From contig NZ_OZ244162.1 of assembly GCF_965216485.1 (NCBI RefSeq), forward strand, positions 865,385 to 929,384: DNA of 64,000 bases, in the 5' to 3' direction. Origin of the DNA: Algiphilus sp. (GTDB lineage: Bacteria > Pseudomonadota > Gammaproteobacteria > Nevskiales > Nevskiaceae). Under the pieces are notes generated by a model. That model had not been told where the DNA came from. It saw only the letters and a program-made list of their open reading frames with translations, and searched no databases. Shown here one piece after another: positions 9,609 to 43,091 of the stretch (position 1 is its first letter; each line of letters opens with the position of its first letter). The position numbers and the translations under genes were made by a program.

Positions 9609-9618
9609 GCGAGTGGGC

Positions 9619-19618: not shown

Positions 19619-19668
19619 GAATTCTCTACAGACGCATGAGGAGGGTGTGCGAGGGCGATGTTTACCCC

Positions 19669-22758: not shown

Positions 22759-23204
22759 TCGTGATAGTGATCCTCGCCGTGGTCGTGCACATGTAGGTCA
22801 TAGGACAGCGTGAGCAACTGGCCGTCCGCCTGTTCCAGCGCCAGTTGCAGATTGACGCTCTTGACTTCCGCCCACTGCACCGGCGCGGCGTCGATCAGAA
22901 TGCGATAGCCATCATCGGGGATGCGCAGGGTCTGTCCGGCACTGAGGGCAATGGCGGGTAGCTGCTGTTCCGGCGCGGTGCTCAGCAGGCGCGCATTGTC
23001 GCTGCCCGCCACCGACGCCCCCACCAGCCGCACGCTCTGCTGCAGGCCGTTGCGAAGACGCAGATGCAACTCGGCGGGTGCATCCTCCGACGGTCTTTCC
23101 ACCCAGCCATCTTCGATGGACACCGTGCGTGATCCGGAGCAGGCCGCCAGCAGGGTGGCGAGTGCCAGCAGCCATGCGGATATCGAAAGTGGACGTGAAG
23201 CCAT
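22752..23204 (-). CDS. Lipoprotein with a beta-sandwich (PCuAC/DUF461-like) body and a His-rich C-terminal tail
   Basis: I prefer the ATG at 23204 (the listed ORF starts at a TTG at 23222). Lipobox LLAACSG. The C-terminus is DLHVHDHGEDHYHDH. Its stop overlaps the MerC-like gene end by 7 nt (convergent). Confidence 0.55.
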   Translation of the reverse strand: MASRPLSISAWLLALATLLAACSGSRTVSIEDGWVERPSEDAPAELHLRLRNGLQQSVRLVGASVAGSDNARLLSTAPEQQLPAIALSAGQTLRIPDDGYRILIDAAPVQWAEVKSVNLQLALEQADGQLLTLSYDLHVHDHGEDHYHDH

Positions 23205-23246
23205 GGTCGGGTGCGTCGCCAAGGAAAAAGGGGGGCGGGTACGGTC

Positions 23247-23879
23247 TCAGTCGAGCCAATCGATGGTTGCGATCAGACGCGCAGTATGCCCGTCGACCGC
23301 CGGTGAGCGGTGCACAAGGCCGTTGCCTTCGTTACCCAGCCAGTGTTCTCCCTTCATCAGCGCGACGTCGCCGGCGCGCAGTTGCTGCGGTTCCGCCTGC
23401 GCACTGGATGCAGTGCCTGATGCACCCAGGTGGTCGCGGTCCACGACATGCTTGGGTAGCCATTCGGTGCCGGGGCCGCAGAAGGTCGCGATCATGCGTA
23501 CCGGAATGCGGTCGACGTGGAAGCGGGGACACATCGCGCGGTCCAGCGCCGTGATGCGCAGCCCAATGGCGGGAGGCTCGAACAGTTCCGCGAACATGCG
23601 GGCGCAGTCAGTTACTGCCACCAGCAGTGGGTTCAGTGCGGGGTCGGTGGGCCAGCGACGGCGCACATCGGCATCGACCGCTGCTGCCGTGCCGTGGCTG
23701 TTGCACAGAAAGCCCGGTCGCGCCCGGCATAGCGTTTCGGCGCCAAGCCGCGCCTGCCAATCGAGACCCCCTTCCCAGACCGCCAGATTGACGCCGGGCT
23801 GGTAGATCTCCGCGAGTACGGCAGCGTTCGGGCCACCGGCGTACTGGGTCATCGCGTGCGCGGGGCTGAGGGTTTCCAT
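23247..23879 (-). CDS. DUF1826 domain protein
   Basis: The motifs MCPRFHVDRIPVRMIATFCGPGTEW and GLVHRSP match what I recall for DUF1826. The start shares 1 nt with the stop of the upstream COG0523 gene. Confidence 0.7.
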   Translation of the reverse strand: METLSPAHAMTQYAGGPNAAVLAEIYQPGVNLAVWEGGLDWQARLGAETLCRARPGFLCNSHGTAAAVDADVRRRWPTDPALNPLLVAVTDCARMFAELFEPPAIGLRITALDRAMCPRFHVDRIPVRMIATFCGPGTEWLPKHVVDRDHLGASGTASSAQAEPQQLRAGDVALMKGEHWLGNEGNGLVHRSPAVDGHTARLIATIDWLD

Positions 23880-25084
23880 CAGGCGGCTTCCTCCTCTTGG
23901 GTCCAGTCGGGGAACGGGTCCGGCAGGCGGGCCCAGGCTTGCGGCCCGCCAGCCAGCTCTTCATCGCTGAGCAGTGCCGCATTGAGCTGGCTACGAATGG
24001 CGGCCTGATCCAGGCCCTGGCCGATGAAGATCAGCTCCTGTCGGCGGTCGCCGAAGGCCTCGCTGCTTCGCTGTGCCATCTGCTCGCGCCAGGCCGAATC
24101 CTCCGGCCATTGCGACGCGGGCACCGCGGCCCACCAGTTACCCGCCGGTCCGTGGCGCATGATGCCGCCGGCCTGTGACCACTGCCCGGCAATATCGAAG
24201 CGGGTCGCCAGCCAGAAGAAGCCCTTGGAGCGCAGCAAGGTGCCGGACCACTGCGGCTTGGTGATCGTGTCCCAGAAGCGCTGCGGGTGGAACGGACGAT
24301 CGGCGCGGTAAACCATGCTCGCGATGCCGTGCTCCTCGGTTTCCGGAATATGCGTGCCGCGCAGTTCCTGCAGCCAGCCTGGCGCGGCGGCGGCGCGCTC
24401 GAAGGAGAAGCGCCCGGTGTTGAGCAGCTTGTCGAGGGGAAGCTGACCGAAGGTGGCGGGGATGATCTCGGCGTGGCGATTCAGCTGCAGGAGCAGCGCG
24501 GTGAGCCGTTCGCGCTCTGCCTGACTGATCAGCTCGATCTTGTTGAGGATGAGAATGTCCGCGAATTCCACCTGGTCGACCAGAAGATCGGCGACGGTGC
24601 GGTTGTCATCCTCGCCGAGGCTTTGGCCGCGTTCGTCGAGTTCGTCAGCCTGTTCGAGGTCGACGGCGATATGGACCGCGTCGACCACGGTCACCATGGT
24701 GTCGAGGCGCGCCAGATCGGACAGGCTCTTGCCGTGCTCATCGCGAAAGGTGAAGGTCTCGGCCACAGGGAGCGGTTCCGAGATGCCGGTGGACTCGATC
24801 ACCAGTGCGTCGAAGCGGTCTTCACGCGCCAGCTTCGCCACCTCGATCAGAAGATCCTCGCGCAAGGTGCAGCAGATGCAGCCGTTCGACATCTCCACCA
24901 GGCGCTCGTCGGCGCGATGGAGCTGGACGTCGCGGCTGACGAGGTCGGCGTCAATATTCACGTCCGACATGTCGTTGACGATGACCGCTACGCGCCGCCC
25001 ATCCCGGTTATTGAGAATGTGATTGAGCGTGGTTGTCTTGCCCGCTCCGAGAAAACCCGAGAGCACCGTGACCGGTAGCGTCAT
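23879..25084 (-). CDS. zigA: COG0523-family GTPase, zinc metallochaperone (ZigA/YeiR/ZagA-like)
   Basis: P-loop [15 protein letters not shown] and metal-binding [12 protein letters not shown] (CxCC). C-terminal CobW_C-like domain. I prefer the ATG at 25084 over the TTG at 25096. Confidence 0.9.
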
Positions 25085-25093
25085 GCGAATCAC

Positions 25094-25116
25094 CAAATGT
25101 TATAACATTGCTAATG
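25094..25116. promoter_or_regulatory. Zur-box-like operator (perfect palindrome AATGTTATAACATT at 25096-25109)
   Basis: A perfect 14-bp palindrome. Its left half AAATGTTATA equals the Zur consensus half-site. It lies 12 nt upstream of the zigA ATG, in the divergent zigA/folE gap, and overlaps a -10-like TATAAC on the zigA strand. Confidence 0.55.
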
Positions 25117-25195
25117 ATCGCATTGCGGCCATGGGCTGGCAATGCCCCGGCGGCGCCGCTGTATCGGCGAGGAGCCGCTGCCTTTCCAACCCACG

Positions 25196-25825
25196 ATGCA
25201 GGAGATGCACGCCATGGATGATGAGCGGGCACTGACCACGGAAGCCCGGCAGGGCGCAGAGCGCCATCGGCCGACGCGGGGGGCCGCCGAAGCCGCCGTC
25301 GACACCCTCATTCGATGGGCCGGGGATGATCCATCGCGTGAAGGCCTGCGCGATACGCCCCAACGCGTCGTGCGCGCCTACGAGGAATTCTTCAGCGGTT
25401 ACGGCGAAAACCCGCGGCAGCCCCTGTCACGCACCTTTGAAGAGGTCGCCGACTATCAGGGCATCGTGCTGCTGCGCGACATCCGCCTGGAATCGCATTG
25501 CGAGCACCACATCGTGCCGATCATCGGCACCGCCCACGTGGCCTATCTCCCGGATCGCCGCGTTGTCGGCATCAGCAAGCTGGTGCGCGTGGTGCACGTC
25601 CTGGCGCGCCGTCTGCAGACGCAGGAGACGCTGACTGCGCAGATTGCGCAGGTGCTCGATGAGGCTCTTGCGCCGCGCGGTGTGGGCGTGCTGATTGACG
25701 CCGCGCATCAATGCATGACGACGCGCGGGGTACGCGATGTGGGCGTGTCCACCGTCACCAGTCATTTCACGGGGGATTTCGCCTCCGACACGGCCCTGCA
25801 GGATCGCCTCTGGCGCCTGCTCTGA
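25196..25825 (+). CDS. folE: GTP cyclohydrolase I, type IA (zinc-dependent FolE)
   Basis: Motifs [38 protein letters not shown] and HQCMTTRGV give the Cys/His/Cys zinc ligand pattern of FolE type IA. The start is uncertain among ATGs at 25196, 25205 and 25214. Confidence 0.9.
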
Positions 25826-28833: not shown

Positions 28834-29793
28834 ATGATCCGCAAATCTGTCTGCCTGGCGATCCTTTTCGCCCTCGTCGTGCCGCTATCCGGCTGCGGCG
28901 GCGGGCACAGCACCGGCGAAACGGCGATCGAAAACGGCGGCTTCCGCCTGCTTGTCTTCACCCGCACGGAAGGTTTTCGCCATGCCTCCATTCCCACCGG
29001 CGTGGAAACTGTCGAGCAGCTCGGCGTGATGCACGGCTTCGAGGTCGAACATACCGAGGACCCCGCGGCATTCAATGCCGAGAATCTGGCGCGTTTCGCC
29101 GCCGTGATGTGGCTCAACACCACCGGCGATGTCCTGGACGAGGGGCAGCAGCGCGCCTTCGAGGACTACATCGCGGCCGGTGGCGGCTATGTCGGCGTAC
29201 ATTCCGCCTCGGATACCGAGTTCGACTGGCCCTTTTACGGCCAACTGGTGGGCGCCTATTTCAAGAATCACCCGGTGTTCCCCGTCACCGCCGAGGAAGG
29301 CCCGGGCGTGCAGCAGGGCGTGCTGCGACGCGAGGCAGCCGAGCACCCTTCGACCGCGCATCTGCCCGAGCAATGGACGCTTGAGGATGAGTTCTACGCC
29401 TTCCAAAGCAATCCGCGCGGTGTGGTGCGCGTGCTGATGAACATCGACGAGGACAGCTACGACCAGGACCCGAATACCAGCAATCTTCCGGGTCGCGATG
29501 GCTTCCCGCTGGGGGAGACCGGGCAGATGAACGACCATCCGATGAGCTGGTGCCACGACAATCTCGGTGGCATGGCCTGGTATAGCGCCATCGGTCACAG
29601 CATCGGGCTTTACGACGACGGCGACTTTCGCCAGCACCTGCTGGGCGGCATTCTCACCGCCGCACGCCGCCAACCGGCCGACTGCGCACCGCGCGAGGAT
29701 GGTCCGCTGGCAGAGCCGGAGGAAGGCCCGGCCGCGCCGCAGCAGATTCCGCTGCTCGACGAAATCGCTGACGCCCTGGCGCCGCCAGCCTGA
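28834..29793 (+). CDS. ThuA domain lipoprotein
   Basis: Lipobox PLSGCGG. LLVFTRTEGFRHASIP, YVGVHSASDTEFDWPFY and MSWCH resemble ThuA (trehalose-utilisation-like) proteins. Confidence 0.75.
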   Translation: MIRKSVCLAILFALVVPLSGCGGGHSTGETAIENGGFRLLVFTRTEGFRHASIPTGVETVEQLGVMHGFEVEHTEDPAAFNAENLARFAAVMWLNTTGDVLDEGQQRAFEDYIAAGGGYVGVHSASDTEFDWPFYGQLVGAYFKNHPVFPVTAEEGPGVQQGVLRREAAEHPSTAHLPEQWTLEDEFYAFQSNPRGVVRVLMNIDEDSYDQDPNTSNLPGRDGFPLGETGQMNDHPMSWCHDNLGGMAWYSAIGHSIGLYDDGDFRQHLLGGILTAARRQPADCAPREDGPLAEPEEGPAAPQQIPLLDEIADALAPPA

Positions 29794-29799
29794 GCCCGA

Positions 29800-32061
29800 C
29801 TAGCGCGGGGCGGTGTACCAGACGGGGGAGGTCCAGCCGCGTTCCTCGATGGTCTGGAAGACCGGCGTGCCGCTGAAGCGGGGGCCGTCGGCGGTGGCGG
29901 TCTCCTGGATGGCGCAGCAGCCCTCGAAACCCTGCAGGCCGGTGGATTCCGGAAAGATGCCATTTGCCGGATCGAGGCGCGCGCAGTCGACATCCTTGGT
30001 CAGGCAGAGATGCGTGTTGTAGCGGCAGCTCGGCACTTCCAGCGCGCGCACGTAGTAGAAGGCGTGCTGATTGGCGTTGAAATCCGGGTCCTGCCAGACA
30101 GTACCCAGCTGCGAGGGATGCAGGCCAGTGTAGACGGCACAGCTGTCGCGCGCGGGTAGCCGCGGTGTGTCGTCGGTCTGCGCCACCGTGTACACGCGGA
30201 TGTGACGCTCGCCAGCGGCATCCACCCAACCCTTGATGATCTGCAGCGCCTGCAGCGGATGACCGTCCGAGTCCTGCATGACCCAGGCCGCGATGTACGG
30301 TGCGTCACCGCTGCGCGGCGGCAGGTCGGCGCCCATCGCCACACCGGGGAGTGCGGCGGCAGCCATCGGGTCTTCGCCATCGGCGAGGCGCTGCATGACA
30401 TCCTCGGGAAAGGGCTGCCAGCTCGCCAGCATGCGCATGCGCAGGCGTGGCCCGGAGGTGCCCCAGGTCTCGCCGCGGCGCACCGCCTGCCAGATCGCCT
30501 CGCGCCTGTTTTCCGCTGCCCACACGCCCGCCAGGCCGCCAGGATTGAAGGGACGCGCCACATCGGCGAACAGCCGGCCAGGGCAATTGTCAGGGTCGGA
30601 GGGATCCGGGTTGTCGAAGTCGCCCGCCTCGATGCACTGCCACTCTCCGAGCTGCTCGGCGGGCTCATCGTCGAGCACGCCGCCGTGGCCGGAAAAGCCG
30701 GCCTCGCGCACATTGCCGGGCGTACCGTTGTGGTTGTCGGTGGAAGCCGAAATACCCATGCGGTACGGGTTGATGCCGTCGAGTCGATCCTGGATCGCCA
30801 GGCCTTGGGTGAGGGCGTCACGTACGAAATCCTGCGGTGCGGTGCAGCCGTCGGGCGTCGAACCACTGGTGGTGACGGTGTCGCACACATCGACCGCATA
30901 GAGCGGGTCGCGGTGCTGGCAGAAAGCGGGGTCGGTGGCGCTGCCGGTGCAGTACTCGGCGCATTCGGCCGGGTCATCGGCGTCGCCGGTGCAGACGTGC
31001 TTGAACAGCTCGAAATCGCAGTTCGATTCCTCGCCCTGCAGCAGGCCGCCGCCGAGTCCGACGGCGCATTCGGATTGGCCCTTGTGCTGACTAATCTCGA
31101 AGCCGCGTTCCAGTTCCGCGCGCAGGCGGGCGTCAACCGCCGTCAGCGGCTGGTCGTCGCGCGCCGGCGGCAGACCGGTGGCGGGATCGATCGGCCGGAA
31201 GAAGCGACCATTGGCGGTGTTGGCGCTGTGCGCGATGGTGAAGACATCGCAGCCCTCGATCTCCACGCAGGCCTGCTGCAGATGGTCGAAGAGTTCCCAT
31301 TCGATATTGGTGTTGTCGGGCTGGGCCGCGCTCAGCGCGCCGACGGCCCCAAAGGTGTCGGCAGGCACCGTGTCATTGCGGAAGAAGATGTTGCGATGCA
31401 CGGATTGGCCGAAGGCATTGGGCGTGTACTCATAGGCGTGCATCGTCGTGAAACGGCAGGGCTTGTATTCCTCGTTGTTGATGCGCTGGGTCTCCTGCCA
31501 GGCGATCCGCGTCGTGGGCAGTTCGCCGGTGATGCCCTGAAGAAAGGCGAGGGCCGGGGAGGTGTCGCCCGCCACGAAGCTGCGCACATCGTTGCGGATC
31601 TGCTGGCCCAGCAGATTGCACGCCGGGTTGGTGCCCGGTTCCAGGTTGCCGCGCGCCTCGCACACATTGCGGAAGTTGCCGATGGATTCGGCGTGGTCGG
31701 TGATGGCTGCGAAGTCCAGCGGGCGATCGAGCTGCACCGTGCGCCGCGGGGTATGCGGGTCCTCGTCGCCGGCCGGCAGCCCGACCGGGTCGCCCTGGGC
31801 AAAGCGCAGCGCCTCGCGCGGCCCGTTCATGCTCTGGAAGAAATAGGCGTCGATCGAGAAATTGGTATGGGTGTGCAGGTCGCCGAAGTAGGCGTTGTGA
31901 AAGCCGGGTTGGAAGTCCGCGCAGGGTGCGCTGGGACCGGCGCCGATGTCGCCACCACCGTCGTCGGGGGTTGTGCCGTTGGACGGGGCTGTGCTGGTAC
32001 CACAGCCGCCCAGCCAAAGGGCAAGACAGAGCAGCGCGGGAATCTGAAGCGGTCGGACCAT
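29800..32061 (-). CDS. DUF3604 family protein, cysteine-rich lipoprotein (PHP-like N-terminal metal motif), copy 1
   Basis: I prefer the ATG at 32061 (GGAG 6 nt upstream). Lipobox LWLGGCG. Motifs GDLHTHTNFSIDAYF, ITDHAES, STDNHNGTPG, FYYVRALE and ERGWTSPVWY. 22 Cys after the lipobox. Confidence 0.8.
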   Translation of the reverse strand: MVRPLQIPALLCLALWLGGCGTSTAPSNGTTPDDGGGDIGAGPSAPCADFQPGFHNAYFGDLHTHTNFSIDAYFFQSMNGPREALRFAQGDPVGLPAGDEDPHTPRRTVQLDRPLDFAAITDHAESIGNFRNVCEARGNLEPGTNPACNLLGQQIRNDVRSFVAGDTSPALAFLQGITGELPTTRIAWQETQRINNEEYKPCRFTTMHAYEYTPNAFGQSVHRNIFFRNDTVPADTFGAVGALSAAQPDNTNIEWELFDHLQQACVEIEGCDVFTIAHSANTANGRFFRPIDPATGLPPARDDQPLTAVDARLRAELERGFEISQHKGQSECAVGLGGGLLQGEESNCDFELFKHVCTGDADDPAECAEYCTGSATDPAFCQHRDPLYAVDVCDTVTTSGSTPDGCTAPQDFVRDALTQGLAIQDRLDGINPYRMGISASTDNHNGTPGNVREAGFSGHGGVLDDEPAEQLGEWQCIEAGDFDNPDPSDPDNCPGRLFADVARPFNPGGLAGVWAAENRREAIWQAVRRGETWGTSGPRLRMRMLASWQPFPEDVMQRLADGEDPMAAAALPGVAMGADLPPRSGDAPYIAAWVMQDSDGHPLQALQIIKGWVDAAGERHIRVYTVAQTDDTPRLPARDSCAVYTGLHPSQLGTVWQDPDFNANQHAFYYVRALEVPSCRYNTHLCLTKDVDCARLDPANGIFPESTGLQGFEGCCAIQETATADGPRFSGTPVFQTIEERGWTSPVWYTAPR

Positions 32062-32075
32062 GGCAGGCTCCAATG

Positions 32076-33098
32076 CTAGGCGGCGCCAAGGGCGGTGATG
32101 CGCCCCAGCAGCCAGTAACAGGCGATGCCGCCCAAGGCATGGGTGGCGAGCTGCGCGCTCGGCGCGGCCGGCAGCCAGCGGCCCAGAGGACGCAGCAACA
32201 GCAGGGCGGCGATGAACAGCAGTTGCCCTGCTTCCACCCCGAGATTGAAGCTGGCCAGCGCCCAGGCCTCGGCGGCCGGCGGCAGACCGATATCCGCGAG
32301 CGCGCCGGCAAAGCCGAAGCCGTGCAGCAAGCCGAATCCGAAGGCAACCGCCCAGGGGAAGCGGAAGGTCCAGCTGGGCGGCATCGCGCGGCCGGCTCCC
32401 GGTGGACCGGCACGGGCGAGTTCCACCGCCAGCAGTAGGATCGACAGCGCAATCACGGCTTCCACCGGCGCGGAAGGCAGGCGCAGCTCACCCAGTGTGG
32501 CCAATGACAGCGTGATGCTGTGCGCCAGCGTGAAGGCGGTAACGGTGCCGATCCACGCGCCGACACCGCGGCCGGCACGCCACAGCACCAGCACCAGACC
32601 CAGCACGAAGAGCAGATGATCCGGGCCGGCCAGGATGTGTTCCACGCCGAGCAGGAAGTAGGTCGCCACCGATGGCTGTGCGCGGCTGTCGGTCAGAGTC
32701 AGTGCGACCTCGGGCGCATCGCGGCTGGCGCGCTGATAGCGCGCATCGTTGCCCATGCGAATATGCACCAGCGCTTCCGGCCGAATGCTGTTCATCCCGC
32801 CGACGTGCAGCCGATGCGCCTCCATGGCGGCGCTGCATTGCAGCTGCCAGCGACGGATCAGTGCTTCTTCAGTGACGGTGACTTCGGCCTGTCCGTGCGG
32901 CGCGCATTCTGGCTGCAATGACAGTTGCAGGGGCGGCAGCGTGCGTTCACCGCGGCGCGCATCCTTGGTGAGCACCTGCAGTGTCTGCGGCCCCGTGGCC
33001 TCGATACCGATATAGGCCATGGGTTGCTCGTGCGCGGCTGCCGGCGTGGCCAACAGGCACGCCCAGATGCATGCGCATGCAATGACGGCGATCTTCAT
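32076..33098 (-). CDS. HupE/UreJ-like membrane protein with an extra N-terminal periplasmic domain (HupE_UreJ_2-like), copy 1
   Basis: Signal peptide, then about 140 aa of soluble region with two conserved Cys (IRRWQLQC). The membrane core has GVEHILAGPDHLLF, AHSITLSL, EAVIALSI, GLLHGFGFAG and FNLGVEAGQL. Confidence 0.8.
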   Translation of the reverse strand: MKIAVIACACIWACLLATPAAAHEQPMAYIGIEATGPQTLQVLTKDARRGERTLPPLQLSLQPECAPHGQAEVTVTEEALIRRWQLQCSAAMEAHRLHVGGMNSIRPEALVHIRMGNDARYQRASRDAPEVALTLTDSRAQPSVATYFLLGVEHILAGPDHLLFVLGLVLVLWRAGRGVGAWIGTVTAFTLAHSITLSLATLGELRLPSAPVEAVIALSILLLAVELARAGPPGAGRAMPPSWTFRFPWAVAFGFGLLHGFGFAGALADIGLPPAAEAWALASFNLGVEAGQLLFIAALLLLRPLGRWLPAAPSAQLATHALGGIACYWLLGRITALGAA

Positions 33099-33937
33099 CA
33101 CGTGGAGGGCGCGCGGCGCACCACGAATTGGGCGCGAAGCTGCTCGAGCAGGTCGGCATTCTTCCGTTCACGCTGCAGATGGCGCACTTCATTGACCAGG
33201 GCCTCGCCGGCGGAGTCCACCGTGGCCGGCACGAAGGGGATGACCGCCTGCACGCGCACCAGGTGCAGCCCTGCTGGCGAGGCAATCGGCCCCGACCACT
33301 GCTGCAGCGGGAAGGTCTGCAAGGCGTCGAAGAAGTCACGGCCGAATCGCTTGTGCACTGCCGTGGCATCGGCGGCCTTGATCTGCGCCGGGCCCGGGAA
33401 AGGGTCGCCCGGCGGCAGCGCGGCGCCGGACCCGGCTGCTCGCAGCTCGTGCAGCAGCGCCTCGGCGCGTTGGGGAGCCTGTGCGCCGCGGGTGAGGAAG
33501 ACGTGCTCGAAGCTGATACGCATCGGCTGGCCATAGCGCTCCGGGTGCGCCTGCAGGTGCGCCTGCAGCGCCTCCCGCGTCGGCTCGGGCAGTGGGTGGG
33601 TGTCCTCCAGCAGGAAGCGCATCTTGCGGATGAGCTGACGACGGATGATCTGATCGTCCTCGTCCAGCCCGAGGGCGCGCGCCTGGCGGAACAGTGCCTC
33701 GTTGTCGACCCAGTGCGCGATCATGCGGTCGAGTTCCTCGGCCGTGGGCGGGCGATGCTCGCGCGTCTGGAAATCCGCACGAAGGGCGTCGACGCGCTGC
33801 GCGCTGACCACGATCTCGCGCGCCGCATCGCCGTCGCTGAGTCCATGGTCGAGGGCAAACAGCGCGCCACCGATCAGTGCGAAGACAACCAGGGGCTCGC
33901 GCAGCCAGCGTGGCCCAAGGGACGCGCTAGAAGGCAT
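33098..33937 (-). CDS. Membrane-anchored parvulin-type peptidyl-prolyl isomerase-like protein, copy 1
   Basis: N-terminal TM (EPLVVFALIGGALFAL). C-terminal ...FEHVFL...FFDALQTFPLQQWSGPIASPAGLHLVRV resembles PpiC/rotamase-2 domains. It overlaps the upstream gene by 11 nt and shares 1 nt with the downstream gene. Confidence 0.65.
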   Translation of the reverse strand: MPSSASLGPRWLREPLVVFALIGGALFALDHGLSDGDAAREIVVSAQRVDALRADFQTREHRPPTAEELDRMIAHWVDNEALFRQARALGLDEDDQIIRRQLIRKMRFLLEDTHPLPEPTREALQAHLQAHPERYGQPMRISFEHVFLTRGAQAPQRAEALLHELRAAGSGAALPPGDPFPGPAQIKAADATAVHKRFGRDFFDALQTFPLQQWSGPIASPAGLHLVRVQAVIPFVPATVDSAGEALVNEVRHLQRERKNADLLEQLRAQFVVRRAPST

Positions 33938-36170
33938 AGGCCAGCGATGCGGTGATGTGGTCGCGGTCCGAGCGCAGATTGCGGTCGCCGGCGCCGGTGA
34001 ACATCGTGTAGTCGACGGTGGTGGTGAGATTGCGCGTCAGACGCATCTGAAAGCCGGCCGTGAGCTTGATCTGCCCTTCGACGAAATTCTGGATAGGGAA
34101 GGCGGAGGTGCCCTGCACGTCGTGCTCGAACAGGGCGCGCGGAATGACGGTCATGCCGAACACGGCGTTGTGATAGGTCGGCAACAGCAGGATGCGATAG
34201 CCCCAGGCGAAATCATCGGCAAAGATGTCCGGGTCCGCCTGCTCCGGATTGACGCGGCGCGTATCCGGTTCGCCGCCGCTGCCGCTGCCGTCCGCGCCCG
34301 GGCTGAAGTGGGTGTTGGTGGCGCCGGAGCCTTCGATCTGCAGCCGCTCCAGCGCTGGCAGGTCGAAAATCTGGGTCGCGCCGACCTCTACCGCCACCAG
34401 AATCTGATCGGCGCCGATCCAGTTGCTCGCCGACAGCGCGCGAATCGCGGTGAAGCTGGCCTGCCCGATGGACAGCCGCTCGTAGCCGGTGACGCGCTCG
34501 CCGGCGGAGACCGGGTCGCGCCGGAAGCGCGTCTGCAGGAAGTCCGGCGCCGCCGAACGCGCCCCGGGCACGGTGAAGATGCTCTCCGCCCCCGTGGGAA
34601 TACCGACATCCTCGTCGGGAAACGCGGGTTGCAGCGAGGCGAACAGCACGTCGCGCGTGGCGACCTGGACGGGCTGGTTGGGGCTGTAGGCGATCTCGCC
34701 GGCGAAGGACCAAGCCCCGATATTGGTGGTGCCGCTGAAGCCGTAGAGCTGGATGTCTTCCGGGTAATCCAGGAAGGGCCGGATGGTGTCCACCGGCAGG
34801 GCCTCCTGCCCGACTTCGGGGACGCCGGGAATCTGTGCGGCGATGGTGTCGAGCACGGTATCGTTGATGATGTTGGCATCCCCCGCGAAGCCGCCACAGG
34901 CGAGCAGGGCCTGCGCAAAGGCGGTCTGCTGCGTGACCGGGTCGAGCGCACCCCCCAGGTCGGGCAGCGCATCCAGCAGCAGCGGAAGTACGGCGCCGAG
35001 GTCCCCAGCGGCGATCTGCTCGCGATCGCGCAGACAGCTGCGTTCGGCGGCGAACACGCTCAGATATGGCAGCCGGCTGTGGTAGTTCATGCCGTAGAAG
35101 CTCAGTTCCGAGCCACCGTTGAGCCATTCGGCGTAGTAGTTCAGCCGCAGGCCGAACTGGCCCTCGTCGCGGGGTTCGCCGAAGCGCTCGTCGAGCAGAT
35201 AGGCCGTGCGCGTGGCACTACTGAGCAGGCTGGACAGACCCGACGGCTGGAACTGGCGATTGGGGTCTTCCGGAAACTGGCCGATGCCGATGGTCAGATT
35301 GGTCGGGCCGTCGCCGGCCGCGCCGATATCCGCGGTCGACAGGAAGGAGCCCGCCACATCGGGTTCGGTGGGCGCCCAGTCGTACTGGTAGAAGGCGTTG
35401 ACCGAGACATTGGCCGAGAACTCGTAGTCGGCAATGATCATCCCTACCGGGAGGAAGGCATTCTTCAGGCGTGCGCCGGGCTGGCGCAGCAGGCGCGCAC
35501 TGAGCGGATTGATCTGGTTCAGGCTGCTGAACACCAGAAAGGTGGATTCGCCCCAGCGCAGGATCTGTTGTCCCACCGACAATCGGAGCCGGCCATCGAA
35601 ACCCGGCACGGGTGCACTGACGAAGGCTTCCAGCAGCCGCGCCTGGCGGCCGAGGTCCGCTTCCAGATCCGGTCGGCGCGGGACGCGTTCAGGCTGGAAC
35701 AGTGTGTTTTCGTTAAAGGTCAGAAAGTCGCTGTTGAAGGGGTCGTAGTAGGCAAGGCCGGTGAACTTCGCACTGAGCTCGCCCCAGAACACACTGATCT
35801 CGGGCTGGTACTGCGCCGTGGCGTAGACGATGTCGCCCTGGGCGTAGTTGAGATTGCCGTCGTCGCCATTGACGTTGTAGCCGCCGCGGGCGTCCACCAG
35901 GCGCTGATTCGGGGCGGGATCCCCCATCAGCGACATGCAGTCGTCCTCCACGCACAGGCGTTCCTGGCCGGGCACGTTGAGCTTGGCCAGCAAGGCGTTG
36001 TTGCGGTCCTCCAGGCGCCAGCTGGCACCCACGGCGGCCCGCTGGTTGATGCGGATATCGACCTCACCCAGACGGAAGTCCGCGGCCTGCCCCTGCGTTG
36101 TACCCAGTGCCAGGCAGGCTGCGAAAACCGCCATCCACTGCCACCCACCCCTGCTACGACTCTCCCCCAT
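33927..36170 (-). CDS. DUF1302-like outer-membrane beta-barrel protein
   Basis: GAGGAG RBS and signal peptide ...ALGTTQGQA. Tyr/Gly/Asn-rich alternating pattern, with a C-terminal ...TASLAYAF (aromatic terminal residue). The N-terminal region resembles DUF1302 proteins as I recall them. Confidence 0.65.
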   Translation of the reverse strand: MGESRSRGGWQWMAVFAACLALGTTQGQAADFRLGEVDIRINQRAAVGASWRLEDRNNALLAKLNVPGQERLCVEDDCMSLMGDPAPNQRLVDARGGYNVNGDDGNLNYAQGDIVYATAQYQPEISVFWGELSAKFTGLAYYDPFNSDFLTFNENTLFQPERVPRRPDLEADLGRQARLLEAFVSAPVPGFDGRLRLSVGQQILRWGESTFLVFSSLNQINPLSARLLRQPGARLKNAFLPVGMIIADYEFSANVSVNAFYQYDWAPTEPDVAGSFLSTADIGAAGDGPTNLTIGIGQFPEDPNRQFQPSGLSSLLSSATRTAYLLDERFGEPRDEGQFGLRLNYYAEWLNGGSELSFYGMNYHSRLPYLSVFAAERSCLRDREQIAAGDLGAVLPLLLDALPDLGGALDPVTQQTAFAQALLACGGFAGDANIINDTVLDTIAAQIPGVPEVGQEALPVDTIRPFLDYPEDIQLYGFSGTTNIGAWSFAGEIAYSPNQPVQVATRDVLFASLQPAFPDEDVGIPTGAESIFTVPGARSAAPDFLQTRFRRDPVSAGERVTGYERLSIGQASFTAIRALSASNWIGADQILVAVEVGATQIFDLPALERLQIEGSGATNTHFSPGADGSGSGGEPDTRRVNPEQADPDIFADDFAWGYRILLLPTYHNAVFGMTVIPRALFEHDVQGTSAFPIQNFVEGQIKLTAGFQMRLTRNLTTTVDYTMFTGAGDRNLRSDRDHITASLAYAF

Positions 36171-36446
36171 GCGCTTGGTCTCCTCTTTTCCTGCCCTGTG
36201 GGCATGGCTGGCCGAGCCTCTTCGGGCGGCCTTATGCGTCCGTAATATCCCGAAAATTTTACGACCTGTAAAGACGCCTCGATCTCGATCGTCAGAGGGG
36301 CAGCGGATCGAGGTGATGGCTGCAGGTGATTATTTGACAGCCTGTAAATAAATCGCGCAGCATGTCGTCGTCAAGGGCACTCGCACCGGGGGAGATGCCC
36401 GCGGAGCGCTGGGCGAACAGTCACGGCCCAAGAGGAGTTGGGGGAG

Positions 36447-37292
36447 ATGCTGAAGACATTCCATAACAAGATCTGCGTCATCACCGGAGGCTCGAGCGGC
36501 ATCGGCTACAGCGTGGCCGAGGCGCTGGCGCGCGACGGCGCCCGGCTGCTGCTGGTCGCCCGTCAGCAGGCGGCGCTGGAGCAGGCGGCCTCCTGTCTGC
36601 GCGAGCTGGGTGCGGCGGAGGTCCAGGTCTGCAGTGCTGACGTGACCAGAACGGAAGACCTCGCCCGTGTCGCCCAGGCCGTGTCGGACATGGGCAAGGC
36701 CGCCGATCTGATTATCACCAGCGCCGGTGTGGTCAGTGCCGGGCTGTTCGAGGATGTTCCGCTGGAAGAGTGGCGTCGACTGCATGATGTCAATGTCATC
36801 GGATTGGTCGCGGTGTTGCAGGCCCTGCTGCCCGCGATGCGCGCCCGTGCCAAGGCGGGGGGTGGCGGCGGGCATATCGTCAACATCGCCTCGGCGGCGG
36901 GGCTGGTGGGCTTTCCGGGCATGGCCGCCTACGGTGCGACCAAGGCGGCGGTGGCCGGCTTGAGCGAAAGCCTGCGCGCCGAGCTGTCCGGCCTTGGCAT
37001 TGGGGTCACGGCGGTTTGCCCTGGCTTTGTGCAGACGCCGATCGCCGACAAGATCACGCTGTTCGGGCGTATGGATACACCGCGCACGCGCAAGATGATC
37101 GGGCAGTGGTTCCAGCGCAATGACCTCTCGCCCGAGCGCGTCGCCGCAGCCACCCTGGCCGCGGTGCGGCGCGATCGTGCCCTGGTGGTGGTGGGCAAGG
37201 ATGCAGCCTCCGGCTACTGGACCAAGCGAGTTGCACCCGGGATTCTGCGCATGGTGCTGCGCCGTGCCGGTGGCGCCTCGGCCACCGCCTGA
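36447..37292 (+). CDS. SDR family oxidoreductase
   Basis: Start at the ATG 10 nt after AGGAG. Motifs VITGGSSGIGYS, NIASAAG and YGATKAAV (YxxxK). Confidence 0.9.
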   Translation: MLKTFHNKICVITGGSSGIGYSVAEALARDGARLLLVARQQAALEQAASCLRELGAAEVQVCSADVTRTEDLARVAQAVSDMGKAADLIITSAGVVSAGLFEDVPLEEWRRLHDVNVIGLVAVLQALLPAMRARAKAGGGGGHIVNIASAAGLVGFPGMAAYGATKAAVAGLSESLRAELSGLGIGVTAVCPGFVQTPIADKITLFGRMDTPRTRKMIGQWFQRNDLSPERVAAATLAAVRRDRALVVVGKDAASGYWTKRVAPGILRMVLRRAGGASATA

Positions 37293-37306
37293 GCGGGGAG
37301 AACCGC

Positions 37307-38386
37307 ATGTGGAAGAAAGGGCTTGTCGTGGTCGCGGTGGTGCTGGCCGTGCTGGTCGGGCTGTTCCTGAGCTTCGAGGACCGCATCGTCCGACGCATCG
37401 TCTTTCAGCAGGCGTTGGCGAGCATCCAGGCCGACAATCTCGAAGGCATGGACAACGGCTTGCACGTGGTGCTCTGCGGCTCCGGCTCGCCGCTGCCGGA
37501 CCCGACCCGCGCCGGCCCCTGCGCATTGGTGATCGCAGGCGAGCAGGTGCTGATGGTCGACGTCGGATCGGGCAGCATGCGCAATCTCGGCCCCATGGGC
37601 ATTCCACCCGGGCGGGTGGATGCCTTGCTGCTCACCCATTTCCATTCCGACCATATCGATGGCATCGGAGAGCTGATGCTGCAGCGCTGGGCCGGAGGCA
37701 GCCACTCCACGCCACTGCCGGTGATCGCGCCCGCAGGGGTCACCCCCATCGTCGAGGGCTTCAATCAGGCTTACCGCACCGATATCGGTTACCGCATTGC
37801 ACACCACGGAGAGGCGGTTGTGCCGCCCAGCGGCGCCGGTGCCAGTGCGCGTCCCTTTGCGCTGCCGCCGGCGGAAGGTCGCGTGGTGCTGCAGCAGGAA
37901 GGACTGACCGTCACCGCCTTCCCGGTCGATCACGCGCCAGTGGAGCCGTCGGTGGGCTACCGCTTCGACTACCAGGGACGCAGCGCGGTGATCAGCGGCG
38001 ACACCAAGGCCTCGGACGTAGTGCGTCGCCACGCCCAGGGCGTGGATCTGCTGGTGCACGAGGCGCTGGCCTCGAATCTCGTCGGCATCCTGACCGAGGC
38101 CGCCGAGGTGGCCGGCGAGACGGAGTTGGCGACCATCACGCGCGATATCCTCGACTACCACACCAGCCCGGTGGAGGCGGCGCGCATCGCGGCGCAGGCC
38201 GAAGTCGGGCACCTGCTCTACACCCACATCGTTCCGCAATTGCCGGTGGTATTGCTCGAACGGCAGTTTCTGAAAGGGGTGGACGCCGTCTTCGAGGGTC
38301 CGGTCACGGTGGGCGAGGACGGTCTGTGGGTGTCCATGCCGGCCGACAGCACAGCCATCGACATCGAGCAACTCCTACGCTGGTAG
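37307..38386 (+). CDS. MBL-fold metallo-hydrolase (RNase Z/arylsulfatase-like), N-terminal membrane anchor
   Basis: LLTHFHSDHIDGIGEL (HxHxDH) and later H/D ligands (GDTK, LVHEA). N-terminal hydrophobic VVVAVVLAVLVGLFL. Confidence 0.85.
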   Translation: MWKKGLVVVAVVLAVLVGLFLSFEDRIVRRIVFQQALASIQADNLEGMDNGLHVVLCGSGSPLPDPTRAGPCALVIAGEQVLMVDVGSGSMRNLGPMGIPPGRVDALLLTHFHSDHIDGIGELMLQRWAGGSHSTPLPVIAPAGVTPIVEGFNQAYRTDIGYRIAHHGEAVVPPSGAGASARPFALPPAEGRVVLQQEGLTVTAFPVDHAPVEPSVGYRFDYQGRSAVISGDTKASDVVRRHAQGVDLLVHEALASNLVGILTEAAEVAGETELATITRDILDYHTSPVEAARIAAQAEVGHLLYTHIVPQLPVVLLERQFLKGVDAVFEGPVTVGEDGLWVSMPADSTAIDIEQLLRW

Positions 38387-38416
38387 CACCTGCCATTCGA
38401 TTTCTTTGAGACCCCG

Positions 38417-39547
38417 ATGACCAAGCCCTATCTGCTGTACGGCTGGCAACTGTCCTATTTCAGCGGCAAGGCGCGCGCCTATCTGCGCTACAAGCAGATT
38501 CCCTTCCGCGAGCGGGTGGTGGATGGCTACACCCTGATGCGGCGGATTCCGCGCAAGACCGGGAGCAGTCCGGTCATGCCGGTGGTGGTCACGCCGGAGG
38601 GGGAATGGCTGCAGGACACCACCCATATCATCGAGACGCTGGAAGGTCGCTTTCCCGCGCCTTCCGTCTATCACGAGTCCGCGGCCCTGCGCGTGCTCGC
38701 GCAGTTGCTGGAAGTCTGGGCGGACGAGTGGTGGATTCCCCCCGCGATGCACTACCGATGGTCATATCCCGAAAACGAGGCGCTGTTTCTGAAGGAGGCC
38801 GGGCGCGCATTGCTGCCCTTTGCACCCGGCTTTGTGCAGCGTCGGCTGGCGCGCCGGCCGGCCACCATGCTGAAGAGCTATCTGCCCGGCGTCGGGGTCG
38901 TCCCCGAGCAGTTTGCGCTGATGGAAGCCTGGACCGAGGCCATGCTCGACGCCCTCGACCAGCATTTCGCCAGCCACGATTTCCTGCTTGGCGGGCGCCC
39001 CTGCGTGGCCGATTTCGCCCTCATCGGCCCGCTCTATGCGCATCTGGCCCGGGACCCCTGGCCGCAACGTGCCCTGATCGCGCCGCGTCCGCATCTGCAG
39101 GCCTGGGTGGCGCGCACCCATGCCGGTGCGCAGGGTGATGGGGCGCTGTTCGACATTGCTGCGCTGCCGCCGACCCTGCAGCCGATCCTGCGCGCGCTAC
39201 GCGACGAATTTCTGCCCATGGTGCTTGGCATTCGCGATGCGGTGCTACGGTACGCGGAAGGCGGTACGGGGCAGAAGCCGCGTCTGCCGCGCGCGCTCGA
39301 GTCCATTGATTTTCCCATGGCCGACGGCCGCTTCCACCGTCTGGCCATGCCCTACACGCTGTGGATGATGCAGGGCGTGCAGCGCGGCTATCTGGCGCTC
39401 GACGAGGCACAGCGCACTACGCTGTGCACCGCGATCGGCGGCGGTGCAGCCGCCGAGGCGCTGGCGGCGGACATGGGGCCGCCGCTGCAGCGCACGGGCC
39501 TGCGCGTACGCCTGGCGGAGCCAACCGGCAGCGCGCGCAGCCGTTAG
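38417..39547 (+). CDS. Long glutathione S-transferase-like protein (thioredoxin-fold N-domain), paralog 1
   Basis: LYGWQLSYFSGKARAYLRYKQIPF, LLEVWADEWW..MHYRW and LLGGRPCVADFAL. 376 aa. Confidence 0.7.
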   Translation: MTKPYLLYGWQLSYFSGKARAYLRYKQIPFRERVVDGYTLMRRIPRKTGSSPVMPVVVTPEGEWLQDTTHIIETLEGRFPAPSVYHESAALRVLAQLLEVWADEWWIPPAMHYRWSYPENEALFLKEAGRALLPFAPGFVQRRLARRPATMLKSYLPGVGVVPEQFALMEAWTEAMLDALDQHFASHDFLLGGRPCVADFALIGPLYAHLARDPWPQRALIAPRPHLQAWVARTHAGAQGDGALFDIAALPPTLQPILRALRDEFLPMVLGIRDAVLRYAEGGTGQKPRLPRALESIDFPMADGRFHRLAMPYTLWMMQGVQRGYLALDEAQRTTLCTAIGGGAAAEALAADMGPPLQRTGLRVRLAEPTGSARSR

Positions 39548-39575
39548 GCTACGGCCTTTGTCACCGGAAGATCGC

Positions 39576-40124
39576 ATGTCCCTGAAGCAACGTTTCGAAT
39601 CCGCCTCCCACGCCGCCGTGACGCGCGCCCAGCAATGGGGCGTACCGGTGGAGGAGCTGGAGCGCGTCGTCGATCAGCGCCTGCAGCCCTTGCTGGTCAA
39701 GCACCTGTCGCGTTTCGTGATTCCCTTCGTGCGTCGCTCCGGCGCGCGGGTGGTGGCATTGGAGCCGGGGCGCGTCGCGTGCCGCATGCCGCTGCGCGGC
39801 AACGTCAATCACATCGGCACGATGTACGCCGGTGCCCTGTTCACGCTGGCCGAATTCCCCGGCGGGCCGCTGATGTTGGCCACCTTCGGCATGCGCCGCT
39901 TCATTCCCATCGTGACCGCTCTCGACATGCAGTTCGTACGCGCCGCCAAGAGCGATGTCTCCGTCGAGCTAACGCTGAGCGCGGAAGAGGCCGAGCGCAT
40001 CGAGGCCGAGACCCTGGCCGAAGGCAAGTCAGAATTCGAGGTGCGCGGCGAGCTGAAGGATGCCCAGGGCGAGGTGGTCGCACTCAGCCGCGCGATCTAC
40101 CAGATGCGCCCCAAGCGCCGCTGA
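39576..40124 (+). CDS. Hot-dog fold thioesterase (YiiD C-terminal/DUF4442-like)
   Basis: Start moved to MSLKQRF. GNVNHIGTMYAGALFTLAEFPGG is typical of PaaI/DUF4442-type hot-dog proteins. Confidence 0.65.
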   Translation: MSLKQRFESASHAAVTRAQQWGVPVEELERVVDQRLQPLLVKHLSRFVIPFVRRSGARVVALEPGRVACRMPLRGNVNHIGTMYAGALFTLAEFPGGPLMLATFGMRRFIPIVTALDMQFVRAAKSDVSVELTLSAEEAERIEAETLAEGKSEFEVRGELKDAQGEVVALSRAIYQMRPKRR

Positions 40125-40150
40125 CGGCCGCTTCCCTCACCAGGCCCCGC

Positions 40151-41278
40151 ATGGACGAGACCGCGCCGCGCTATACCGTCTACAAGATGGATATCTCCTA
40201 CTTCAGCGGCAAGCTGGAGGCCTACCTGCGCAACAAGGGCATCGCCTATGCCGCGCAGGACGCGGATGCGCGCACCCTGGATCGCATCCATCGCGCAACC
40301 GGCGCCAAGAAGGTGCCGGCGGTGCAGATGGCGGACGGCCGCTGGCTGTTCGATACCACGCCCATGCTGGACTGGTTCGAGCAACAGCATCCGGAGCCCG
40401 CGCTGGCACCGGCCGATCCGGCGCTGGCCTTCGTCGCAGCGCTGATCGAGGACTATGCCGACGAGTGGCTCTGGCGCCCGGCAATGTGGTGGCGCTGGGA
40501 GCCGGTTCCCACGCGCCTCGCTCTCGGCTGGCGCATTGCCCAGACCGTGAATCTGCCCGCCGTGCACAAGGGCGTCTTCGCGCGCTACTTCGCGCATCGG
40601 CAGCGCCAGACCTGGTTGTGGGACGACGGTGTGGACGCAAGCAATGCTGAGGCGGTGCGCGCGGTCTACCTGCACGAACTCGACACCCTGCAGGCGGTGC
40701 TATCGCAGCAGGCCTATCTTCTTGGCGCGCGGCCGTGCGCGGCGGATTTTGGCTACTTCGCCTCGATGTTCCGGCACTTCGGCAACGACCCCGATCCGGC
40801 CGAGCACATGCGTCGCCGGGCGCCTGCGGTCTATGAGTGGCTTGCCCGTCTCTGGAACGGTTCCCCGCAGCGCTTTGCCGACGAGCCCGCCTGGCAGTGG
40901 CCGGAAGCGCAGCATTGGGCCGGATTATGGCAGCGGATTGCCCAAGACTACCTACCCTATCTGCACGCCAACGCCTGCGCCTATCGCGACGGCAGGAAGC
41001 GCTTTGATGTCGCCTGTGCCGCCTTTGCGCTCAAGGGCACGGTCACCCATCGCTACCGGGTATGGTGCCGGCAGGAATTGCAGCGCCGCTTTGCTGCCTT
41101 GGATGCCGGCGCTCAAGCACGGGTGGAGGCCCTGTTCGCGGCGCATGGCGGCCTGCGGGCCTTGCACGCTGACGGCGTGATCGACGCTGGCATGGGGGAG
41201 CACTTCACCTTGCCCAAGGCGGCCGGTGACTACCGGCCATCGCTACGCGTTGCCCTGATGGGTCAGCCGCGCGACTAG
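40151..41278 (+). CDS. Long glutathione S-transferase-like protein, paralog 2
   Basis: Start moved to MDETAPRY. VYKMDISYFSGKLEAYLRNKGIAY, LIEDYADEWLWRPAMWWRW and LLGARPCAADFGYF. Colinear with paralogs 1 and 3. Confidence 0.7.
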   Translation: MDETAPRYTVYKMDISYFSGKLEAYLRNKGIAYAAQDADARTLDRIHRATGAKKVPAVQMADGRWLFDTTPMLDWFEQQHPEPALAPADPALAFVAALIEDYADEWLWRPAMWWRWEPVPTRLALGWRIAQTVNLPAVHKGVFARYFAHRQRQTWLWDDGVDASNAEAVRAVYLHELDTLQAVLSQQAYLLGARPCAADFGYFASMFRHFGNDPDPAEHMRRRAPAVYEWLARLWNGSPQRFADEPAWQWPEAQHWAGLWQRIAQDYLPYLHANACAYRDGRKRFDVACAAFALKGTVTHRYRVWCRQELQRRFAALDAGAQARVEALFAAHGGLRALHADGVIDAGMGEHFTLPKAAGDYRPSLRVALMGQPRD

Positions 41279-43050: not shown

Positions 43051-43091
43051 GACCGCCGGGCGAGCGCATAACAGACCACGGGGAGACCACT

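Follow-up and report, generated by a model that had tools for sequence, protein, structure and literature searches.

A DUF3604 lipoprotein, a parvulin-type foldase and a HupE/UreJ-2 permease form a gene module that recurs from Algiphilus to other bacterial phyla

How enzymes that fold outside the cytoplasm obtain the right metal in spite of competition from zinc and copper is an old question, and the known answers consist mostly of folding in the cytoplasm followed by export through the twin-arginine translocation (Tat) pathway. The DNA of Algiphilus sp. analysed here, called the window throughout, comprises 64,000 nt of contig NZ_OZ244162.1 (positions 865,385 to 929,384; 66.5% G+C) and carries an operon of four genes. 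These encode a DUF1302 outer-membrane porin, a membrane-anchored parvulin-type foldase resembling peptidyl-prolyl isomerases (PPIases), a HupE/UreJ-2 permease extended by a periplasmic domain (the HupE-like protein) and a cysteine-rich DUF3604 lipoprotein (Table 1). Are these genes neighbours by accident, or do they serve a common function, and which of them belong to it? The initial annotation of the locus, made from the sequence alone, had proposed that the foldase and the HupE-like protein are maturation factors of DUF3604 and that the porin supplies its substrate. Our analysis identified DUF3604, the foldase and the HupE-like protein as a module found repeatedly in at least four bacterial phyla. 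DUF3604 is probably an exported metalloenzyme, and the other two proteins probably help it to fold and handle metal for it.

Linkage of DUF3604, foldase and permease genes across bacteria

The neighbourhood of DUF3604 was surveyed in a forward census that was seeded with a DUF3604 alignment and covered 80 loci, one genome per species, with flanks of up to 10 kb. Partners were identified by phmmer searches with the window's own proteins against all six-frame open reading frames (ORFs) of the loci. A foldase-like gene adjoined DUF3604 in 24 of the 80 loci, and in 19 of these 24 a HupE-like gene was also present. The positive loci belonged to Nevskiales (Polycyclovorans, Sinimarinibacterium, Hydrocarboniphaga and Solimonas), to Limnobacter, Moraxellaceae, Halieaceae, Litorivivens, Sphingomonadaceae and several Myxococcota, and also to Acidobacteriota (Terriglobia and Vicinamibacterales). 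A reverse census, consisting of a metagenome scan seeded with an alignment of the HupE-like protein, covered another 80 loci. The foldase-like gene was located directly upstream of the HupE-like gene and on the same strand in 51 of the 54 loci with at least 400 nt of upstream sequence, and 12 of the 13 loci with informative flanks on both sides also contained DUF3604. A rough estimate puts the chance of meeting two low-copy families no more than 10 kb from a given gene at about 1%; the observed frequencies therefore represent a large enrichment in both directions. That the adjacency is accidental, or is a hitch-hiking island without functional meaning, is hardly credible against these numbers, since the linkage was kept across at least four phyla despite differing gene orders (foldase-HupE-DUF3604, DUF3604-foldase-HupE or divergent). 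The initial annotation had taken the association to be functional, and this phylum-spanning enrichment of rotamase-like and HupE_UreJ_2-like genes beside DUF3604 bears it out.

Searches with each of the three proteins led to further loci. From the HupE-like protein we reached a locus of Alteromonas aestuariivivens with the Pfam-annotated order DUF3604 - Rotamase_2 - HupE_UreJ_2, a locus of Kaarinaea lacus with Rotamase_2 - HupE_UreJ_2 followed by two DUF3604 genes, one metagenome-assembled genome (MAG) with the trio and one further MAG with the foldase/HupE pair alone. The foldase-like protein led to a Gemmatimonadota chromosome and two further contigs, all three with the trio. DUF3604 led to Algiphilus aromaticivorans (locus L165), which has an identical four-gene operon including the porin, and to a metagenome contig with the trio. 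The family search returned at least 7999 significant candidates, and the source loci came from many unrelated public metagenome and MAG projects.

The order within the pair is fixed, with the foldase-like gene preceding the HupE-like gene. The in-frame start of the latter overlaps the stop of the former, by 4 nt in 53 of the 83 pairs and by a single base in another 10, which is the pattern expected of translational coupling. DUF3604 has no such fixed position and may be upstream, downstream or divergent relative to the pair; one pair is often shared by two or three tandem DUF3604 copies (L091, L109, L113, L119, L134, L144, L149 and L169). No pair was found near 41 DUF3604 copies whose flanks extended for 3 kb or more in each direction, and a single MAG held a trio (L018) plus an orphan DUF3604 (L066). 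Clustering of all flanking ORFs of 52 trio loci gave no fourth family of comparable recurrence.

The initial annotation had pointed to a recurrence of the same core at 49652-53983 of the window. A second trio is indeed encoded there, without a porin and with the DUF3604 gene divergent from the foldase/HupE pair (type 2 in Table 1). The most likely start of its HupE-like gene is the ATG at 50839, from which the signal peptide ends in SEA, followed by HTRS; the end of the type-2 foldase gene overlaps the HupE-like start by 14 nt. The type-2 DUF3604 begins with MRRMLRKVLVVLALVALIIGVVII, an uncleaved-looking membrane anchor instead of a lipobox, and keeps every invariant His/Asp position of type 1. 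With identities between the types of 25-26% for DUF3604 and about 32% for the HupE-like protein, the window carries two deeply diverged versions of the whole trio. In other genomes type-2 DUF3604 was always flanked by a type-2 HupE-like gene, and type 1 likewise by type 1. The foldase-like gene was of type 2 too in L002 and L004, and its score in L137 was too weak to type. Because the types of DUF3604, of the HupE-like protein and, where it could be called, of the foldase match, the components of the trio must have diversified together.

Table 1. Features of the two trio loci in the window, with positions given in window coordinates
Feature	Position	Strand	Size and evidence
DUF1302 outer-membrane beta-barrel, first gene of the operon	33927-36170	-	747 aa, C-terminus ...LAYAF; PF06980 E=3.6e-134, residues 14-747
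Type-1 membrane-anchored SurA/PEB4/PrsA-like parvulin foldase (PPIase-like)	33098-33937	-	279 aa; Rotamase_2 1.4e-9
Type-1 HupE/UreJ-2 permease with periplasmic N-terminal His1 beta-sandwich	32076-33098	-	340 aa from ATG; PF13795 5.2e-43, residues 148-303
Type-1 DUF3604 lipoprotein, cysteine-rich, predicted trinuclear PHP-like metallohydrolase	29800-32061	-	753 aa from ATG; PF12228 1.1e-126
Sigma-70-like promoter match upstream of the porin gene	36244-36272	-	9/12 matches; sole promoter-like site; overlaps a TTTAC-N5-GTAAA palindrome
Type-2 HupE/UreJ-2 permease with N-terminal His1 domain and extra hydrophobic insertion	49652-50841	-	PF13795 6.7e-42
Type-2 membrane-anchored SurA-like parvulin foldase	50826-51659	-	Rotamase_2 3.3e-10, SurA_N_3 1.6e-9, SurA_N_2 7.5e-9
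Type-2 DUF3604 with N-terminal membrane anchor	51740-53983	+	PF12228 1.5e-27; divergent from the type-2 pair

The three proteins and their relatives

Profile searches upheld the families assigned initially (DUF1302, Rotamase_2, HupE_UreJ_2 and DUF3604), with no reassignment to characterised families. The Pfam bit scores were 424 and 96.7 for the DUF3604 genes at 29800-32073 and 51740-53983 (cut-off 20.4), 146.9 and 143.2 for PF13795 of types 1 and 2 (cut-off 24.5) and 449 for DUF1302, and none of the four operon proteins reached the cut-off of any NCBIfam model. All four products are predicted envelope proteins, as had been annotated: the DUF1302 barrel ends in AYAF, the rotamase is membrane-anchored, the HupE-like protein has a signal peptide and DUF3604 has a lipobox.

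DUF3604 had been described as a 750-aa lipoprotein with a metal-site motif and 22 Cys. Motif (GDLHTHTNFSIDA in type 1) and lipobox (LGGC) stood; the type-1 protein has 753 aa from the ATG, and its precursor has 24 Cys, close to the earlier count, with 2 of them in the signal peptide or lipobox. About 14 Cys are conserved in the family. The AlphaFold2 model of DUF3604, built with a 60-sequence alignment, had a pLDDT of 90.6 and a pTM of 0.90, with disorder only in the signal peptide and in a Gly/Pro/Thr-rich tether of about 20 residues after the lipobox Cys. The top PDB match of this model in Foldseek was 3E38, a protein of two domains that includes a predicted PHP-like metal-dependent phosphoesterase (probability 0.99, E = 1.3e-4), with a TM-score of only 0.42 on the target owing to large insertions in DUF3604; the C-terminal part matched generic beta-sandwiches. 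Invariant across the family, type 2 included, are H63, H65, D71, H123, H222, H278, D442 and H444, and E211 is nearly invariant. These nine potential ligands follow the order of the PHP set, which we take to be H7, H9, H15, H40, E73, H101, H131, D192 and H194 in YcdX, and most of them are at or just past predicted beta-strand ends. In an hhalign comparison of the DUF3604 profile with YcdX, GDLHTHTNFSIDA was placed on DLHMHTVASTHA (H7/H9/H15), over 18 columns only and with E = 0.007 and a probability of 5.5%. Judged from the model, DUF3604 would be a PHP-type distorted (beta/alpha)7 barrel with a nine-residue His/Asp/Glu set, of the kind by which PHP phosphoesterases hold three metal ions, and would most likely hydrolyse phosphoester-type bonds in the periplasm.

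A lipobox or signal anchor was present in most of the 60 DUF3604 homologues, and an RR pattern was scored in only 2 of the 60. The lipobox together with the lack of a recurrent twin-arginine motif indicates that DUF3604 is exported unfolded by the Sec pathway, and that its disulfides and any metal are therefore acquired in the periplasm. Hydrogenase and urease receive their metal while still in the cytoplasm; DUF3604 differs from them as a Sec/lipoprotein substrate, and its export signals did not fit a Tat-exported or cytoplasmically metalated client of the hydrogenase/urease type.

A 22-sequence profile of the foldase-like family matched SurA (2e-13), PEB4/Cbf2 (3RFW, 2.8e-12, profile positions 60-271), HP0175 and PrsA, with the SurA and 3RFW matches extending over almost its full length. 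The family has a conserved EPLLHF motif before the N-terminal membrane helix, no Cys, and a SurA-N-like helical segment (EE-LYREAL-LGLD--D-VVRRRL-QK) followed by a parvulin domain with G-x-HLV at its end. Of the two His residues canonical for parvulins, only H225 in G-x-HLV is conserved, and the position of the first is variable. By its sequence the protein would be a parvulin of the SurA/PEB4/PrsA type with a putative PPIase/chaperone role. It shares with SurA, PEB4 (Cbf2), HP0175, PrsA and PpiD the placement of the parvulin domain within N- and C-terminal chaperone helices and, with PpiD and PrsA, a similar membrane anchoring. Unlike these general chaperones, however, it has its own EPLLHF motif and is almost always encoded with a HupE-like gene.

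The HupE-like protein had been noted for an added N-terminal domain of about 140 aa with a conserved Cys pair. Since the HupE_UreJ_2 match of the type-1 protein is confined to its residues 148-303, the approximately 145 extra N-terminal residues are real, and both Cys (C65 and C88) are conserved in at least 90% of 32 homologues. The same holds for H23, which becomes the first residue of the mature protein (His1) after the predicted cleavage of the type-1 signal peptide between AAA and HEQP; A22 is invariant. Across the 32 sequences the invariant residues of the transmembrane part are H154, D160, H161, H193, E213, H259, N285, E289 and Q292. The AlphaFold2 model (pLDDT 86) consists of a beta-sandwich at residues 28-132, followed by helices. 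The top Foldseek matches of the N-terminal domain were ZrgA (8F1B, 8EZW) and PA4063 (7AMX and others), with a probability of 1.00 and target TM-scores of 0.5-0.6. A search with this domain alone against 1.8 billion representative proteins gave six weak, uninformative matches. By analogy, the HupE-like protein would be a putative metal permease whose free N-terminal His can bind metal.

Fusions of a His1 domain with a HupE/UreJ-2 permease were described in 2025 under the name 'anglerases' (Franco Cairo et al., Nat Commun; PMC12537917; RbAng-1a structure 9GCE). The Ang-1 domain of a Rhodobacteraceae protein, whose closest fold is ZrgA, binds Cu2+ (Kd 74 nM) and Ni2+ (220 nM) via a mono-histidine brace (PMC12537917). 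The HupE-like protein has in common with anglerases a conserved His1 directly after the signal-peptide cleavage site, a periplasmic beta-sandwich and the HupE/UreJ-2 permease, with ZrgA (8F1B) as the closest solved fold. In contrast to them its domain is about 120 aa rather than about 175 aa long, lacks three inserted helices and has the conserved Cys pair. The transmembrane domain is 39-44% identical to the RbAng-1a protein in BLASTP and hhalign, and both methods aligned only this part; in the periplasmic domain nothing was aligned beyond an N-terminal HE-RPA. The structure 9GCE was retrieved neither by a profile search of PDB sequences nor among the top 50 Foldseek matches. The N-terminal domain thus cannot be aligned to RbAng-1a and has ZrgA as nearest fold in common with it, and we therefore classify the protein as anglerase-like and not as a member of Ang-1. 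As neighbours of anglerase genes, that paper names genes of unknown function, DUF4198, IndA-like and PfkB, and it makes no mention of DUF3604 or a PPIase (PMC12537917). ZrgA of Vibrio cholerae and PA4063 of Pseudomonas aeruginosa, periplasmic zinc-binding proteins and the best structural matches of the domain, differ in that they stand alone and are encoded with MacB-type ABC importers; their identity to the domain is only 8-12%. The canonical HupE/UreJ Ni/Co permeases, like the HupE-like protein, are encoded beside a metalloenzyme that they possibly serve and carry H-x5-DH in the first transmembrane helix, but they are short proteins without an extra periplasmic domain or a foldase partner.

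Unusual permease genes were seen in two of the trio loci. In the Gemmatimonadota chromosome (L167, 7888-10104) the HupE_UreJ_2 gene of the trio encodes 738 aa, double the usual length, and a ZnuA/FtsX/ABC cluster adjoins the trio. In L169 (8927-10104) two additional short canonical HupE_UreJ genes follow the trio.

All three parts of the module thus have known relatives, namely PHP enzymes, SurA/PrsA foldases and anglerase-HupE permeases, and urease and hydrogenase are familiar examples of metalloenzymes whose genes are accompanied by accessory genes for transport and maturation. A PHP-type enzyme encoded beside a dedicated cofactor-maturation protein is known from Escherichia coli, where the zinc cofactor of YcdX depends on the chaperone YcdY (PMC4464133). 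With 245 aa YcdX is a small protein, however, YcdY belongs to the TorD/DmsD family and not to the parvulins, and no permease is involved. The initial annotation had stated that its author knew of no described system of such composition. Our literature search found no description of the widespread trio itself or of any function of DUF3604, and no functional study of DUF3604/PF12228 or of PF13795/HupE_UreJ_2, only a table entry for Chlamydia CT_425. The statement needs a correction with respect to the 'long HupE' architecture, published as anglerases (PMC12537917).

Operon layout and neighbouring genes in the window

On re-reading, the coordinates and junctions of the four minus-strand genes agreed with the arrangement annotated initially, with overlaps of 11 nt and 1 nt and a gap of 14 nt. 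The foldase-like ATG is located 11 nt within the end of the porin gene, the foldase/HupE junction TGATG has one base common to both genes, and after the gap a GGAG Shine-Dalgarno sequence precedes the DUF3604 ATG at 32061. Alternative starts are a GTG at 33101 for the type-1 HupE-like gene and a TTG at 32073 for the type-1 DUF3604 gene. Because of the gene overlaps the four genes are likely co-transcribed; no terminator-like hairpins were found within 29500-36600. The region between the porin operon and the divergent short-chain dehydrogenase/reductase (SDR) operon contains TTTAC-N5-GTAAA palindromes at 36258-36272 and 36334-36348, two copies compared with 0.07 expected. They are a candidate operator and were absent from all 164 other loci compared. 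Another palindrome, GTCTACAATTAGAC, occupies 51701-51714, within the 80 nt that separate the divergent type-2 foldase and type-2 DUF3604 genes. No riboswitch or other RNA family of Rfam was detected in the window.

The porin belongs to the operon only in Algiphilus (the window and L165). Otherwise it was found within 10 kb of the trio only in L002, L003 and L004, which are Nevskiales or Limnobacter loci, and is thus a lineage-specific addition outside the conserved core. The proposal that it supplies the substrate of DUF3604 found no support beyond the Algiphilus lineage. In common with the DUF1302/DUF1329 outer-membrane pairs of Pseudomonas, the operon encodes a full-length DUF1302 barrel, here in its first gene, but the trio takes the place of the usual LuxR/DUF1329 context. 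No DUF1329 partner was present among the Pfam-scanned ORFs of the window, and near the trio it occurred in L166 and L168 only.

Several other genes recur beside the trio. In the window these encode an SDR (36438-37292), a membrane-anchored RNase Z-like hydrolase of the metallo-beta-lactamase (MBL) type (37307-38386), long glutathione S-transferase (GST)-like proteins (38417-39547, about 40130-41278 and 53994-55019) and a DsbA-like protein (55016-56317). Such neighbours (36438-41278 and 53994-56317) were seen in L002, L003, L004, L050, L065, L144, L165 and L166; they occur in Nevskiales and Limnobacter, and in Myxococcota loci as MBL and GST genes. The MBL, GST-like, SDR and DsbA-like genes may form a secondary layer of the system. 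Elsewhere, the window contains an SdsA-like alkyl sulfatase gene (42774-44822) and a gene of the FGE-sulfatase family (14907-16067), and an alkyl sulfatase is also encoded near the trio of L166. Two large convergent genes of the penicillin-amidase family are located at 6865-12147.

An island of the zinc-starvation type at 18671-25825 encodes two Big_1+DUF3299 proteins, a MacB/FtsX permease, an ABC ATPase, a PCuAC-like protein, DUF1826 and a COG0523/CobW GTPase. It resembles the ZrgABCDE and PA4063-4066 systems, which begin with the very proteins that the N-terminal domain of the HupE-like protein matches best in structure. A perfect Zur-box-like palindrome, AATGTTATAACATT, occupies 25096-25109 in the space that separates the COG0523 gene from a divergent gene for GTP cyclohydrolase I. 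A Zur-like box was found at neither trio operon of the window.

Proposed maturation of DUF3604 and its alternatives

The two directions of the census differ in a way that bears on the role of the pair. The pair is almost always beside DUF3604 while many DUF3604 genes are without the pair, an asymmetry typical of accessory genes. Together with the sharing of one pair by several paralogues and with the co-diversification of the types, it argues that the pair serves DUF3604 rather than the reverse. A similar pattern is known for urease maturation genes and for formylglycine-generating enzymes with sulfatases. We consider it an evenly balanced proposition that the foldase and the HupE-like protein form an inner-membrane complex dedicated to the maturation of DUF3604. 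The foldase would receive the large, Cys-rich DUF3604 as it leaves Sec and keep it folding-competent; anchored in the membrane, it would hold its client near the His1 domain. The His1 domain and the permease would handle a metal ion for the trinuclear site in the periplasm, the ion being either handed over after capture or moved across the membrane by the permease. In Algiphilus the DUF1302 porin has been added to the operon. The data show the gene structure, the family assignments, the predicted folds, the export signals and a conserved linkage with co-diversification; the complex, its maturation role, the direction of metal flow, the metal and the substrate are inferred.

The site of metal insertion follows from the export route. 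As DUF3604 folds in the periplasm, its metal must be inserted there; as a Sec/lipoprotein substrate it cannot be loaded in the cytoplasm as hydrogenase is, and an importing HupE protein alone would not metalate it. Its location at the entrance to a metal permease makes the His1 domain a plausible metal donor. The initial annotation's idea of maturation factors is thus the best reading of the asymmetry, with the modification that metal delivery of the cytoplasmic type is ruled out and the step must be periplasmic. It is tentative, and somewhat doubtful, that the foldase and the His1/HupE protein constitute a dedicated periplasmic metallocentre-assembly machine, which would insert a specific, weakly competitive metal into a folding Sec-exported lipoprotein enzyme.

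Several observations weigh against a maturation role. DUF3604 is assigned to the PHP proteins by a fold search and motifs, and searches of PDB sequences with DUF3604, either as a single sequence or as a 60-sequence profile, returned nothing meaningful. DUF3604 is also found in Chlamydia trachomatis (CT_425), and it occurs without the pair nearby, as judged on the flanking sequence; the partners may therefore not be universally required. The foldase and DUF3604 are encoded without the permease in L021, L054 and L076, and the foldase and the HupE-like protein without DUF3604 nearby in L082 and L098. Contact among the three proteins is something we infer, and no metal-responsive operator was found upstream of the operon. 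The characterised HupE/UreJ proteins import Ni/Co into the cytoplasm, and an importer would not obviously metalate a periplasmic enzyme. The sole apparent fusion, a metagenome protein of 839 aa with PF13795 and PF12228 (P0048), begins with the final 60 or so residues of a HupE-like sequence, which run on into a complete DUF3604 with signal peptide and lipobox. We rejected it as a true fusion, as it looks like a read-through or frameshift artefact (lost stop codon, frameshift or miscall).

The import activity of the characterised HupE/UreJ proteins, and the capture and uptake proposed in the published anglerase model, are the starting point of an explanation by metal acquisition. DUF3604 would hydrolyse a periplasmic metal-containing or chelating compound, for example a phosphorylated chelate, the His1/HupE protein would capture and import the ion, and the foldase would only fold DUF3604. 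The few pairs without DUF3604 (L082, L098), the extra canonical HupE_UreJ genes after the module in L169, L077 and L161 and the ZnuA/ABC zinc system beside the Gemmatimonadota trio (L167) are in line with it, and several paralogous hydrolases feeding one transporter are a common catabolic layout. We know of no PHP enzyme that releases metal from a chelate, however. No metal-responsive element was found upstream of the operon, the only Zur-like box of the window being that at the COG0523/FolE promoter. COG0523, ZnuA, DUF1826 and DUF3299 were not enriched near the trio, and no systematic link to zinc uptake appeared in 169 loci. The co-diversification of the types and the foldase/DUF3604 pairs without a permease are easier to explain by a relation of client and helper, and we regard metal acquisition as unlikely. 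Still less probable is a catabolic pathway for a hydrophobic ester, in which the porin would import the substrate, DUF3604 would hydrolyse it in the periplasm and the HupE-like protein would import the organic or anionic product, with the MBL, SDR, GST-like and alkyl sulfatase proteins included in the pathway. The porin is within the operon in Algiphilus, MBL and GST-like genes recur beside the trio in Nevskiales, Limnobacter and two Myxococcota loci, and the window, L166 and L113 have genes for an alkyl sulfatase or a sulfatase close by. Yet the porin and these neighbours are missing from most trio loci, and the transmembrane part of the HupE-like protein keeps the His/Asp/Glu pattern of metal permeases, H-x5-DH included, in addition to the conserved His1. 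To our knowledge, no member of the HupE family carries organic substrates. A point in favour of the pathway comes from Pseudomonas putida, whose DUF1302/DUF1329 mutants show a defect on fatty esters (bioRxiv 10.1101/2020.07.04.188060).

Maturation of DUF3604 by the foldase and the HupE-like protein, the reading we prefer, makes the module a concrete and widespread test case, in which a PHP-type enzyme, exported by Sec and rich in disulfides, is encoded together with a foldase and a metal-handling permease of its own. The periplasmic metalation of a Sec-exported enzyme is thereby made experimentally approachable. Three families with little or no functional annotation gain a joint, testable hypothesis, and the 'anglerase' proteins of 2025 gain a candidate client. 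DUF3604 is best studied together with both partners, and their absence may explain any difficulty in producing active DUF3604. If the pair does assemble the metallocentre in the periplasm, the HupE-like protein would be the first permease of the HupE family to act outward or laterally on behalf of an extracytoplasmic client, and this would supply the missing physiological role for one large anglerase subfamily.

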